Origin: an uncultured Methanosarcinales archaeon
Lineage (GTDB): Archaea; Nanobdellota; Nanobdellia; Woesearchaeales; CAIVOO01
Assembly: GCA_964485195.1 (NCBI GenBank)
Contig: CAZAIK010000005.1
Coordinates: 3,773-67,772, forward strand
Direction of reading: 5' to 3'
DNA: 64,000 bases
Shown here piece by piece: positions 15,277 to 42,547 of the stretch. Numbering within the stretch: the first letter of the stretch is position 1; each line of letters opens with the position of its first letter. Below the pieces are notes generated by a model, which saw only the letters and a program-made list of their open reading frames with translations, was not told the origin of the DNA and ran no database searches. Position numbers and translations under genes: made by a program.

Positions 15277-15487
15277 ATGGGTAATTTGTTTTAGCTTTTT
15301 ATAAAATCTCCTGTTTGACGCAAGCAAAAGAAGGCAGGTTCATAACACTTTTCTTGTTAATTTGAGAGTTAACCTAGCGACCGCAACTTCTTAAACTTAA
15401 ATATTTCCTAAAAAAAGGATAGTCCATTGGGCCTGATGCATGGAACCTGCTAAAGATAACAAAGCAAAAATCATGTTTAAATTTTGT

Positions 15488-15531
15488 GCCGGGATGGCCC
15501 AATCTTGCACGGCGCCAGGTTCAGGGCCTGG
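15488..15531 (+). tRNA. 5' half of an interrupted tRNA (Ser-like body, CAG anticodon)
   Basis: GCCGGGA-TG-GCCC-AATCTTGCA-CGGC-G-CCAGG-TTCAGGG-CCTGG; no T-arm follows. Confidence 0.8.
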
Positions 15532-15536
15532 CGGAT

Positions 15537-17246
15537 TCAAAACTTCCTCTTGTACTTGAAAAAACCGCTTCTTCCAGAAGCCTTTACCAATATCGCAGTT
15601 ATGACAAGGAACAGCGCTGTCCAGCCCAGCAATATCAGGATTCCCCCGACAAATGCCAGTATTCCTGAATGGAAAATAAGAGCCTGCCTCAAAAGGCTTT
15701 CAGCAACAACAAAGGGATTGAACTTCGCTATTGTCTGAACATAGGATGGCATGCTTTCTATGGGAAGTATTGTGTTGGAGAAGAACAGGAACACACAGCT
15801 GAAGGAAACAGCTGCCAGTGTTGTTGTTTCCTCTGACTTGAACCAGTATCCGACCAGCATTCCGAAGAGAACAAAGGTTGATATGATAAAAATAAGGCTG
15901 AGGGCCGCTGTGGGAACTCCTGAAAGAAACTGTATGCTTGTGAATGCAAGCGCAACTATGAGGAAGACTATCAACTGCGCAACTATGATAAGAAAGCTGG
16001 TGGCGTAAGTTCCCAGGTTAAACCAGAAGGCGCTCACTGGGGATATGGCTGTCCTGAACAATGAAGACGATTTCTTTTCATTCATCACTATTGTTGAGGC
16101 CAGCAAGATGGAGGTTATCATAACAATAAGCACTATCAAGGTTGGGAACAGGGAGCTGAAATAGGATGTTTCCATAGTGACCGGCTCTATTTTTGTAGTG
16201 ATGGGGTTTGTTATTCTTGAAGCGTTCTTAACCTCCAAAGTCGTGATTTCATCTTTTATTTTCTCCATAGATGTTTCCAGCAACAGAAGAGAAGATGTCA
16301 GGTTTTCCAGGGCGTTCGTGGCAGTCTTGTCCCTGACTGCCTCATCCCTGATTTCAGACGCCTCTTCAAGCTGCTGCTCTGTCTGGTCTGCTGATTCAAT
16401 CACCGACTCCATCAGCTGGGTAAAGGTCCCGTTTTCAGAAATAGTAAGCAATATCGCCTCTGAAGCCTGCCTCAAGCTGTCCTCAACAGGCTCTATCACG
16501 TCCTCGATGGGATCTGAATCAGAGCAGTTGGCGTCATACACCGCCTCGTCTATGTCTTCAATGATGTTAAGGCTGGTGTTGGCTGCTTCGTAGCACAATG
16601 AAGAAAGGTATTCTGCAGTGTTCTGGAGCTCTTCTGTTTCAAAATCAGCTGACTGCAGGTTCAGCCCGGCCAGTTCATCATAAAGGCCTTCTATTTTTAC
16701 AGAGAGTAATTCCTGTTTTTCAAGCATTTCCCCCAACATTTCCTTGTTTTCCCCTGACTCTTGCTGGGCGCTGGCCAGCTTGTTGAGAAGGACTTCAGTG
16801 AGCTGTGTGCTAATCTCTGTGGATTCTGAGGAGACCTTTTCTGATATTATGTCAAGTATCATCCACACTATGTTTATTCTTGAATAGTCCACATAGAAAG
16901 TTATCTCATTTGCTTCCCCCTTGACATCAAGGTCAGGAGGAAACAGGATGCAGATGTTTGCCCTTCCTCTCCTGACATACTTGACGCAGTCGTTCAAACT
17001 TCTGAACTGGTAAACTGTGAATTTTGATGCTATTTTCTGGATGACAGAGTTTGTAAGTTCGCTGTAATCATCTGAATAAACACCCACTGATAAAGAAAGC
17101 TGGCTCTGGCTGTTGCTGAAGGCGAATCCCACCAGCAGCACTATAAGGAGGGGCCCCAGAAGTATTATGACTGCCGAGCTCCTCGACCTAAGGAGGATTT
17201 TAAAGTTCTTTTTTATTATGGACAAAAAAGCTGAGTTTTTGCTCAT
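15537..17246 (-). CDS. ABC-2 type transporter permease with large acidic extracellular domain
   Basis: N-terminal TM, coiled extracellular region, C-terminal TM bundle with ILPIESMP. Confidence 0.9.
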   Translation of the reverse strand: MSKNSAFLSIIKKNFKILLRSRSSAVIILLGPLLIVLLVGFAFSNSQSQLSLSVGVYSDDYSELTNSVIQKIASKFTVYQFRSLNDCVKYVRRGRANICILFPPDLDVKGEANEITFYVDYSRINIVWMILDIISEKVSSESTEISTQLTEVLLNKLASAQQESGENKEMLGEMLEKQELLSVKIEGLYDELAGLNLQSADFETEELQNTAEYLSSLCYEAANTSLNIIEDIDEAVYDANCSDSDPIEDVIEPVEDSLRQASEAILLTISENGTFTQLMESVIESADQTEQQLEEASEIRDEAVRDKTATNALENLTSSLLLLETSMEKIKDEITTLEVKNASRITNPITTKIEPVTMETSYFSSLFPTLIVLIVMITSILLASTIVMNEKKSSSLFRTAISPVSAFWFNLGTYATSFLIIVAQLIVFLIVALAFTSIQFLSGVPTAALSLIFIISTFVLFGMLVGYWFKSEETTTLAAVSFSCVFLFFSNTILPIESMPSYVQTIAKFNPFVVAESLLRQALIFHSGILAFVGGILILLGWTALFLVITAILVKASGRSGFFKYKRKF

Positions 17247-17980
17247 TTAACTGCTGCCTCAAATACCTGGTCCAGGTTTCTTGCATTGAACTGCTTTTTC
17301 AGGCTGTCAACACTTCCCACTGCAGAGATGTTGTGCCTGTTTATTACTGAAATCCTGCTACATATCTTTTCTATCTCATCGAAGATGTGGGATGCTATTA
17401 TTATCGTTGTTCCCTCTGCATTTATTTTTTTAATCAGCTCTGCCATCTGCTTGCGCGCCATAGGGTCCAGGTCTGCCGTGGGCTCATCCAATATCAGGAT
17501 TCTTGGGCCGTGTATCAGCGCGCAGGCAACGTCAAGCCTTTTTTGCATTCCCCCTGAAAGGTTGCGGGCAAGCGTGTTTCCATCTCCCGAAAGTCCCACC
17601 AGATTTATCAGGACTTCTGCGTTATGCTTCAGGGTGTTCCTGTCCAGCCCGTATAGAGAGCCGAAATACTCCAGGTTTTCCCTGACCGTGAGGCTGCCGT
17701 AGAACGAAGGGCACTGGGCAGCGAAACCGAACTTTTTCTTGATATCCTTATGCCTTCTTGCTGAGACAAGGGAGCCTGCCTGGGAAACAAGCACCTCCCC
17801 CTGCTGAAAGCCGGTGAAGCCCACGATGCATTCCAGCAGTGTTGTCTTTCCTGCTCCGCTGGGGCCCACAATCCCGAATATTTCGCCCTGTCCAATCTCA
17901 AGGCTCACGCTGTTCAGCACCAGTTTATTGCCGTAAAGCTTGTTCAGGTTCGCTATTTTAAGCATCGTGTTCTGCTCCAT
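17243..17980 (-). CDS. ABC transporter ATP-binding protein
   Basis: GPSGAGKTT, LSGGMQKR, ILDEPT. Confidence 0.95.
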   Translation of the reverse strand: MEQNTMLKIANLNKLYGNKLVLNSVSLEIGQGEIFGIVGPSGAGKTTLLECIVGFTGFQQGEVLVSQAGSLVSARRHKDIKKKFGFAAQCPSFYGSLTVRENLEYFGSLYGLDRNTLKHNAEVLINLVGLSGDGNTLARNLSGGMQKRLDVACALIHGPRILILDEPTADLDPMARKQMAELIKKINAEGTTIIIASHIFDEIEKICSRISVINRHNISAVGSVDSLKKQFNARNLDQVFEAAVK

Positions 17981-18106
17981 GGGAACAAATTATCCCTTAT
18001 GATTTTTAAATATTGCCCATAAAATATTCATTTTAAAGATTAAATAGTCAATTCAGAGTCGTTGCAGTCGCTACGGATTAAAATTAATAATAACTTCTAA
18101 CTCTTC

Positions 18107-18134
18107 CAAAAACAAAGAAAGGCCCAAAGGGCCT
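18107..18134 (-). terminator. Hairpin plus U-tract downstream of gyrB
   Basis: Minus strand AGGCCC-TTT-GGGCCT followed by TTCTTTGTTTTT. Confidence 0.4.
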
Positions 18135-18200
18135 GGTGTGTAGAACCTACTATCTATGCGGGTTCGAAACTCACTGCGGGCGAAACTCCCGCTCCCGGCG
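18128..18200 (+). tRNA. 3' half of the interrupted tRNA, with 18-nt BHB intron (18169-18186, position 59/60)
   Basis: CCTGG, 21-nt variable arm, T-stem GCGGG/CCCGC, acceptor 3' strand TCCCGGC complementary to GCCGGGA at 15488; discriminator G. Confidence 0.8.
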
Positions 18201-18216
18201 ACTGGATAATAAGAAT

Positions 18217-21417
<3,201 letters not shown>

Positions 21418-42111: not shown

Positions 42112-42210
42112 AGCCCCTGGCGAGATTTGAACTCGCGACCTCTACCTTTTTGAAGCATTCAAACAAGTTTGAAATACCAAGGTAGCGCTCTACCGCTGAG
42201 CTACAGGGGC
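42112..42210 (-). tRNA. tRNA-Thr(GGT) with canonical 37/38 intron (42148-42174)
   Basis: GCCCCTG/CAGGGGC acceptor, CTACC/GGTAG anticodon stem, BHB central helix TTGG/TCAA. Confidence 0.95.
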
Positions 42211-42354: not shown

Positions 42355-42547
42355 TGCGGGGGGAGGGATTCGAACCCTCGGACCCACTAAGGGACAGGAT
42401 ATCTTAATCCATCTCCTATGATGGTTGTCCCATTTCTTAAGTCCTGCGCATTTAGTCCAAAACCGCAGGTTTTTGGCACTCTGCGATTCTTGTTGACCAG
42501 GCTTTGCTCTAAGGAAGGAAAAGCTCATGCTTGACCTTTACCCCCGC
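42355..42547 (-). tRNA. tRNA-Leu(TAA) with three introns (42509-42539 at 8/9; 42452-42492 in D-loop; 42401-42435 at 37/38)
   Basis: Spliced sequence GCGGGGGT|AGCAAAGCCTGGTCAA|ATGCGCAGGACTTAAG|ATCCTG..TTCGAATCCCTCCCCCCGCA; each intron has a 4-bp central helix and bulge geometry. Confidence 0.9.

Follow-up and report, generated by a model that had tools for sequence, protein, structure and literature searches.

Two separated pieces of a tRNA gene, probably a fragmented and inactive copy belonging to a rare archaeal family with serine-type marks and a CAG anticodon

The window, that is the whole stretch of 64,000 nucleotides analysed here, contains two pieces of a tRNA gene that lie apart from each other and fit together at their acceptor strands. 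With a probability of roughly 55%, we regard them as a fragmented and probably inactive copy of a gene from a tRNA family that is itself real and unusual. Judged by sequence, the members of this family are rare archaeal class II tRNAs that combine serine-type identity marks with a leucine anticodon. A tRNA with an anticodon that contradicts its identity is raw material for changes of the genetic code and for regulated mistranslation, and natural cases of this kind are known in yeasts, nematodes and bacteria. The contiguous homologues described below, which exist next to a normal leucine tRNA, could miscode. The locus in the window appears to show how a tRNA gene breaks into complementary halves through duplication and deletion, and it may be a snapshot either of the origin of a split tRNA gene or of the loss of a dispensable, possibly harmful tRNA.

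Anatomy of the locus

The 5' piece comprises tRNA positions 1-43 with the anticodon CAG (Table 1). It consists of the acceptor strand GCCGGGA, the dinucleotide TG, a 3-bp D stem (GCC/GGC) closing an 11-nt loop, G26 and the anticodon arm CCAGG-TTCAGGG-CCTGG with G37; the D loop has a T in place of the first of the two customary G residues. Its sole 3' partner in the genome (hereafter G000; 1.13 Mb, 99.5% complete) was found 2.6 kb away on the same strand, at positions 18137-18200, and an ABC transporter operon encoded on the minus strand lies between the two pieces. The acceptor strands GCCGGGA and TCCCGGC (18193-18199) form seven out of seven Watson-Crick pairs and are followed by G73, CCA not being encoded, and the combined pieces would possess a 7-bp acceptor stem and a 5-bp T stem. 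A 12-mer of the 5' end and a 13-mer of the 3' end are both unique across the 1.13 Mb, and neither piece was reported by ARAGORN or Rfam. A script verified the coordinates of the 5' piece, its acceptor strand, G73 at 18200 and the 21-nt variable span, as they had been given in an earlier reading of the window made from the sequence only. The variable arm described there does span 21 nt, but forms a stem of only 3-4 bp. Since contigs from a second sample of the same study (X2) are identical over both pieces and have the same flanks, the locus is not the product of a local misassembly.

Table 1. Features of the tRNA locus and other genes mentioned in the text (positions in the window)
Feature	Position	Strand	Description
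Copy A, decayed upstream partial copy	15417-15458	+	D-arm remnant, anticodon-stem 3' strand, variable-arm-like stretch
5' piece	15488-15531	+	Ser-type acceptor strand and D arm (T in place of G18), complete anticodon arm, loop TTCAGGG
T-arm remnant directly 3' of position 43	15532-15544	+	11/13 nt identical to 18159-18171; no variable arm; decayed
ABC-2 type transporter permease gene, outside the tRNA	15537-17246	-	ORF; Pfam ABC2_membrane_3, E 3.2e-30
ABC transporter ATPase gene	17243-17980	-	ORF; Pfam ABC_tran, E 1e-30
Leader of the 3' piece	18121-18136	+	Exactly 15496-15502 joined to 15523-15531; hairpin GGCCC-AAA-GGGCC (cofold)
Variable region	18137-18157	+	21 nt, stem of only 3-4 bp; 7-nt tail before the T stem
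T stem 5' strand GCGGG and T-loop positions 54-59 TTCGAA	18158-18168	+	Sequence
BHB intron at tRNA position 59/60	18169-18186	+	18 nt; minimum-energy fold
T60, T stem 3' strand CCCGC, acceptor 3' strand TCCCGGC, G73	18187-18200	+	13-mer unique in the genome
gyrB ORF	18217-21414	-	1065 aa
tRNA-Thr(GGU)	42112-42210	-	One intron
tRNA-Leu(UAA)	42355-42547	-	Several introns, A73; missed by both tRNA finders

Remnants of further tRNA copies surround the pieces. The leader of the 3' piece corresponds to the tRNA minus 20 nt (15503-15522), and the same junction recurs in copy A and in a genome of the same genus (G001). The 9-mer AGGGCCTGG is duplicated, being present in the leader (18128-18136) as well as in the 5' piece (15523-15531). 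Copy A matches the 3' piece in 33 of 56 columns (alignment A1) and is orthologous to the element designated 'piece 1' in G001, with which it agrees in 32 of 59 columns. By their sequences, the 5' and 3' pieces seem to be what is left of duplicated copies, each preserving the part that the other lacks.

The T loop is not aberrant and turned out to be a normal TTCGAAT loop interrupted by an 18-nt BHB intron. The motif consists of the central helix TTCG/CGAA, the bulges AA|A and AC|T, the outer helix GCGGG/CCCGC and an inner helix of 3 bp. For positions 18158-18192, this hBHBh' arrangement is the fold of lowest energy (-10.6 kcal/mol), and excision of the intron restores the 7-nt loop. Bare BHB geometry is not unusual, with 34 sites in 4 kb as compared to a mean of 30.8 in 20 shuffles when G-U pairs are allowed, and the weight of the intron call therefore lies in its context and in the use of the same position by other tRNAs. 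Introns at position 59/60 are also present in the tRNA-Asp, tRNA-Lys, tRNA-Ser(CGA), tRNA-Ser(UGA) and tRNA-Leu(CAA) genes of G000, and in all four contiguous homologues. Many tRNA genes of this genome carry two or three BHB introns, located in the D loop, in the anticodon loop or at T-loop position 59/60, and Rfam yielded only 22 tRNA matches above the cut-off in the 99.5% complete assembly.

Serine and leucine features and the meaning of CUG

To measure likeness to serine and leucine tRNAs, pairwise identities were calculated over the first 27 nt. The 5' piece scored a mean of 20.1/27 against six serine tRNAs and 13.7/27 against eight leucine tRNAs, on a scale on which serine tRNAs reach 19.6 among themselves and 13.4 when compared with leucine tRNAs. 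The class II tRNAs of G000, which are complete and contiguous, comprise a serine set (GGA, GCU, CGA, UGA), invariably with G73, and a leucine set (UAA, GAG, CAA, UAG), invariably with A73; pattern scans for tRNA halves were noisy and served only to locate these serine and leucine genes, and both BHB introns of tRNA-Leu(UAG) were checked by hand. A73 is present in all leucine tRNAs that were parsed, by eye rather than by a tRNA caller, from G000, G001, two further genomes (G303 and G304) and three relatives from the same order. The leucine tRNA with which the pieces had originally been contrasted is the intron-containing tRNA-Leu(UAA) of the window, which indeed carries A73.

In Haloferax volcanii, leucine identity depends on A73 and on specific bases of the variable loop, and the exchange of A73 for G73 switches identity from leucine to serine, while G73 and the G30-C40 pair are determinants for archaeal as well as bacterial-type SerRS (PMC9976931). 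Of the archaeal serine marks, the pieces contain G73, G30-C40 and the 21-nt variable region with its weak stem. As to the leucine signature of the variable loop (A47c and G47d, appearing as a TTAG or TCAG loop in this lineage), the G000 copy contains TAG within a poorly paired region. According to archaeal identity rules, the joined tRNA, if it is ever made, is predicted to be charged with serine rather than leucine. G000 encodes one SerRS gene, at C1:54386-55633, and one LeuRS candidate, at C3:56607-59294.

Other parts of the molecule resemble leucine tRNAs. CAG is a leucine and not a serine anticodon, the loop TTCAGGG is identical to that of the canonical tRNA-Leu(CAG) of relatives, as had been proposed for the anticodon arm, and tRNA-Leu(UAG) of G000 has exactly the same anticodon stem. 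The T arm differs from those of tRNA-Leu(CAA) and tRNA-Leu(UAG) by one compensated pair, and the variable region, which contains UAG, agrees with the variable arm of G000 tRNA-Leu(UAG) at 10 of 15 positions in a hand alignment. Both arms are nearer to leucine than to serine tRNAs, the variable arm less closely so. Because of this likeness, together with the leucine-type anticodon stem, we consider the tRNA a mosaic of serine and leucine parts. The initial description of a serine tRNA body carrying a leucine anticodon arm is therefore partly supported: the serine-like first 27 nt and the serine discriminator G73 were confirmed, whereas the T and variable arms lie closer to the leucine type. The loss of G18, which is replaced by T, was likewise confirmed by comparison with the homologues.

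To learn how CUG is read in this organism, G000 ORFs were aligned to the corresponding loci of relatives (109 HSPs). CTG is the commonest leucine codon, accounting for 911 of 2444 aligned leucine codons, and it pairs with leucine in 61% of cases, similar to CTT, CTC and TTG, with serine falling outside its top six partners. Since CTG is both the commonest leucine codon and aligned with leucine, CUG is not reassigned and means leucine, in agreement with what had been concluded from individual conserved codons. The tRNA-Leu(UAG) of G000 is normal and can cover CUG. The search for a separate tRNA-Leu(CAG) had two outcomes: such tRNAs with A73 exist in G303 and G304, but no canonical tRNA-Leu(CAG) was found in G000 by pattern scans, among the matches listed.

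Contiguous homologues and the age of the layout

Homologues were searched for by their signature of a serine-type 5' end and a CAG loop, both in a metagenome scan and among GTDB species representatives. The metagenome scan returned three loci, two of which (L067 and L068) are homologues. The third (L069; SDBU01000024.1, about 5327, reverse strand of the locus) was set aside as a seemingly unrelated tRNA-like gene with a short variable loop; its anticodon is CAG, its acceptor strand matches poorly, and a second tRNA-like gene follows about 190 nt downstream. Among the GTDB representatives, two genomes were retrieved (L070, in G303, and L071, in G304). A looser signature was met by two of 401 sampled genomes of the order, namely G000 and the genome containing L070.

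All four homologues are encoded in one piece. They share the 5' strand GCCGGGG with a paired 3' partner (one G-U pair in L068), a serine-type D arm that has retained GG, the invariant anticodon loop TTCAGGG and G73. Their variable arms measure 17-19 nt with a stem of 5-6 bp and end in ACCC, TCCC or TTCCC loops, i.e. they lack the leucine-type TTAG loop and with it the leucine loop signature. RNAalifold gave a fold other than the cloverleaf when applied to truncated sequences, and the cloverleaf was therefore tested explicitly. In alignment A2, all 47 of 47 cells pair, with five pairs changing on both sides, as compared to 11-51% pairing in slid controls. G303 and G304 each also encode a canonical tRNA-Leu(CAG) in which the D arm is of the leucine type, the variable loop reads TTAG and the discriminator is A73, and thus the odd tRNA is not simply the tRNA-Leu(CAG) of this lineage. 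A tRNA-Ser(GCU) pattern had no match in these two genomes, in which BLAST gave tRNA-Ser(GGA) only. L068 resembles the window in having thrS on the same strand, at a distance of 2.7 kb.

A partial copy comprising the D, anticodon and variable arms lies 30-60 nt upstream of every member of the CAG/G73 family. In the four contiguous loci, the variable arm of the upstream copy matches that of its own tRNA and differs between genomes, a sequence pattern that points to concerted evolution or a function of these copies.

BLAST searches with both pieces against 40 relatives gave matches at chance level only, except for 18 nt shared with the 5' end of a tRNA-Ser(GCU) in G004. G001 contains an orthologous layout, condensed within 320 nt and at a genomic site different from that in G000. 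It includes a copy resembling the start of the 3' piece (43 of 59 columns identical to G000), the same AT-rich spacer, a broken 5' piece in which the anticodon arm is gone but the same T-arm remnant is kept, and an orphan 3' end; hence, only decayed remnants of the CAG tRNA persist in this species. At the position in G000 that is orthologous to the G001 locus (C4:50.3-51.1 kb), no tRNA piece was seen. The presence of the orthologous layout in G001 indicates that fragmentation took place before the two species diverged; their orthologous proteins share 60-74% identity. Among 301 sampled genomes of the order, G000 and G001 are the only two that share the element. The remnants in G001 adjoin an intact-looking class II tRNA gene (L063:1392-1490) with a serine-type D arm and G73, whose loop TTGACCG provides the anticodon GAC and a pyrimidine at position 37; a degenerate relative of it with the loop CTGATGC is found in G000 (C4:~88490-88600).

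Insertion of the ABC operon into a tRNA gene was considered and ruled out: G003 has gyrB, the two ABC genes and thrS in the same order and no tRNA pieces, its ABC-2 permease ortholog being 48% identical. Within this gene neighbourhood, the gyrB ORF of the window carries a large insert in its conserved core, starting with CFSGNT and ending with VHNS, which is absent from the 635-aa ortholog in G003 and, by its sequence, looks like an intein.

Joining of the pieces and the readings weighed

Could the two pieces be united into one tRNA? All junction pairs between 15500-15619 and 18060-18174 were scanned for a BHB motif formed in trans, and the junctions within the shared 9-mer were enumerated by hand. 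No strict BHB yielding the correct tRNA was found at any junction scanned, and joining at the best-scoring pairs would remove the anticodon arm. Only the palindrome GGCC inside the 9-mer offers a central helix of 4 bp, with UGG bulges and outer helices of 1 bp. A minimal symmetric BHB can be drawn from it (GGCC/GGCC with UGG bulges), and the correct junction would result. A GC-rich stem between leader and trailer was not found, as cofolding gave only AU-rich pairing of approximately 9 bp. Excision via the 9-nt repeat was likewise rejected, there being no contig with a joint, although contigs are blind to rare variants.

According to PMC3218864, the junction of known split tRNAs is marked by a canonical hBHBh' motif, after which trailer and leader form a GC-rich stem of about 14 bp. 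The pieces resemble the split tRNAs reported there from Nanoarchaeum equitans, Caldivirga, Aeropyrum and Staphylothermus in their separate 5' and 3' parts with perfectly complementary acceptor strands, and the organism resembles those hosts in being rich in non-canonical BHB introns. They differ from the cases described in that source by lacking both the junction hBHBh' and the GC-rich stem; moreover, the break lies at or after position 43 and the pieces overlap by 9 nt.

Upstream sequences were compared with those of the tRNA genes of G000, about 17 of 26 of which have a TTTAWAAA-like box near -34 to -27. By this comparison, the locus has no strong TTTAWAAA box at -34 to -27. The 5' piece is preceded only by the weak TATA-like element TAAAGATA at -37 to -30 (15451-15458, the 3' end of copy A), and the 3' piece by an AT-rich run at -43 to -28.

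As neither a canonical BHB nor a complementary leader/trailer pair is present and both G18 and a proper variable stem are lost, the locus most likely gives rise to no mature tRNA. The signs of decay are apparent from comparison with the homologues, which have G18 and a variable stem of 5-6 bp. It is these losses, together with the missing joining motif, the missing strong promoter box and the loss of the gene in the sister species, that favour a fragmented copy. Such a copy could have arisen from a one-piece gene that contains a T-loop intron and is closely preceded by a partial copy, the organization seen in related archaea. Duplication and deletion in the genus of G000 would then have left a 5' part (positions 1-43) with a T-arm remnant and a 3' part with a D-arm remnant, and these halves would have come to flank the ABC transporter operon in G000.

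Several observations speak against an inactive copy. The acceptor, D, anticodon and T stems, the anticodon loop and the T-loop intron are all intact, and it is the redundant copies that have decayed instead (33/56 columns for copy A, 11/13 nt for the T-arm remnant). Neutral DNA should by now be scrambled, as the layout predates the divergence of G000 and G001. In addition, no other tRNA with a CAG anticodon was found in G000, although CTG is its top leucine codon, and about 9 of 26 other tRNA genes of the genome likewise have no obvious TATA box. Because the helices and the intron have remained intact despite the age of the layout, we retain a working split tRNA as a possible, if minor, alternative that comprises two versions.

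In the first version, which we judge doubtful, the pieces would be transcribed separately, paired by the 7-bp acceptor stem and either joined by splicing endonuclease and ligase at a relaxed BHB within the shared 9-mer or used as a two-piece tRNA, and charging with serine would cause low-level leucine-to-serine miscoding at CUG. This proposal accommodates the intact helices and intron, the decay of the redundant copies and the old layout. G73, G30-C40, the long variable region and the serine-type 27 nt comply with the archaeal serine rules set out in PMC9976931, and a single SerRS gene is present in G000. However, it lacks the canonical BHB and the GC-rich stem of the split tRNAs described in PMC3218864, G18 and the variable stem are lost, and the gene has been lost in G001. 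A serine-charged CAG tRNA would also be costly to G000, given that the codon it would misread is the commonest leucine codon. The proposal of a CUG mistranslator generated by splicing or excision, as put forward in the sequence-only reading, finds a better match in the contiguous homologues than in the locus for which it was made, where the BHB with a GC-rich stem is absent.

In the second version, which appears distinctly improbable, the split tRNA would be charged with leucine and would represent the missing tRNA-Leu(CAG) of G000. It would explain why no canonical tRNA-Leu(CAG) was found in a genome whose top leucine codon is CTG, and it is in line with the anticodon stem shared with tRNA-Leu(UAG), the resemblance of the variable region (10/15, including UAG) and a T arm that is one compensated pair away. 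On the other hand, the discriminator is G73, whereas the leucine tRNAs parsed from four genomes and three relatives of the order all have A73, which is, along with variable-loop bases, a leucine determinant in H. volcanii according to PMC9976931; the D arm is of the serine type, and the problem of joining is the same as for the serine-charged version. Scars of mobile-element integration at a tRNA gene, a coincidence or an assembly artefact, none of them backed by a functional tRNA family, are very improbable explanations: partial tRNA copies are frequent around class II tRNA genes here, the locus occupies different sites in G000 and G001, and tRNA fragments in other archaea have tentatively been ascribed to integration or rearrangement (PMC3218864), but no integrase or mobile gene is near the locus, gyrB, the ABC operon and thrS form an ancestral syntenic block, the second sample is identical in sequence, and four contiguous homologues exist whose cloverleaf is kept by compensatory changes and whose anticodon loop and G73 are invariant.

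Returning to the family as a whole, its closest parallel in coding terms is the tRNA-Ser(CAG) of the Candida CTG clade. Both are of the serine type with a CAG anticodon and G37 and could read CUG as serine (PMC2246281 and PMC9502446). In Candida, CUG is reassigned or ambiguous proteome-wide according to the same sources, whereas CTG is here the commonest leucine codon and aligns with leucine; moreover, the odd tRNA of the relatives, unlike that of Candida, coexists with a normal tRNA-Leu(CAG). As this coexistence is seen in two genomes with contiguous copies, a deliberate, partial reading of CUG as serine may follow. A DPANN-type archaeal family with the full serine identity set (G73, serine-type acceptor and D arm, long variable arm without the leucine loop signature) and the anticodon CAG might then read some CUG codons as serine on purpose. 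Archaea would thereby provide their first natural example of Candida-type ambiguity at a sense codon, and in G000 the tRNA would be made from two pieces without a canonical BHB. We put this forward as a speculation that is more probably wrong than right by a wide measure.

Two further groups of mismatched tRNAs invite comparison. The nematode nev-tRNAs are likewise class II tRNAs with a mismatch of anticodon and identity and occur as lineage-restricted minor species beside the normal set. They derive from tRNA-Leu, are charged with leucine and carry glycine or isoleucine anticodons, whereas the present family is archaeal and has serine-type marks and a leucine anticodon (PMC3333845). The bacterial allo-tRNAs are similarly rare, mostly metagenomic and of serine identity with assorted sense and stop anticodons, and have been proposed to act as missense suppressors or regulatory RNAs; they differ in their 8/4 or 9/3 acceptor/T arrangement from the family described here, which has a normal 7/5 arrangement and an archaeal BHB intron (PMC5389517). 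A full-text literature search found no archaeal case of a tRNA with mismatched identity and anticodon.

Finally, repeated elements were noticed elsewhere in these genomes. In G000, one or two additional partial 3' halves lie downstream of both the tRNA-Leu(CAA) and the tRNA-Leu(UAG) gene (C1:103750-104090 (-) and C20:1300-1483 (+)). They consist of a hairpin, a variable arm, an intron-bearing T arm and an acceptor strand that matches its counterpart in the preceding tRNA, and runs of N marking assembly gaps adjoin them. Extra partial 3' halves also follow the tRNA-Leu(CAG) and tRNA-Leu(UAA) genes of G304 (L073 and L085). An intergenic GC-rich repeat of approximately 45 nt with the motif CTGCCTGGCGCAGTTGCCAAC is present on several contigs of G000, at sites including C1:39705, C2:6247, C2:80032, C3:5595, C6:7251, C6:20378 and C13:7196.
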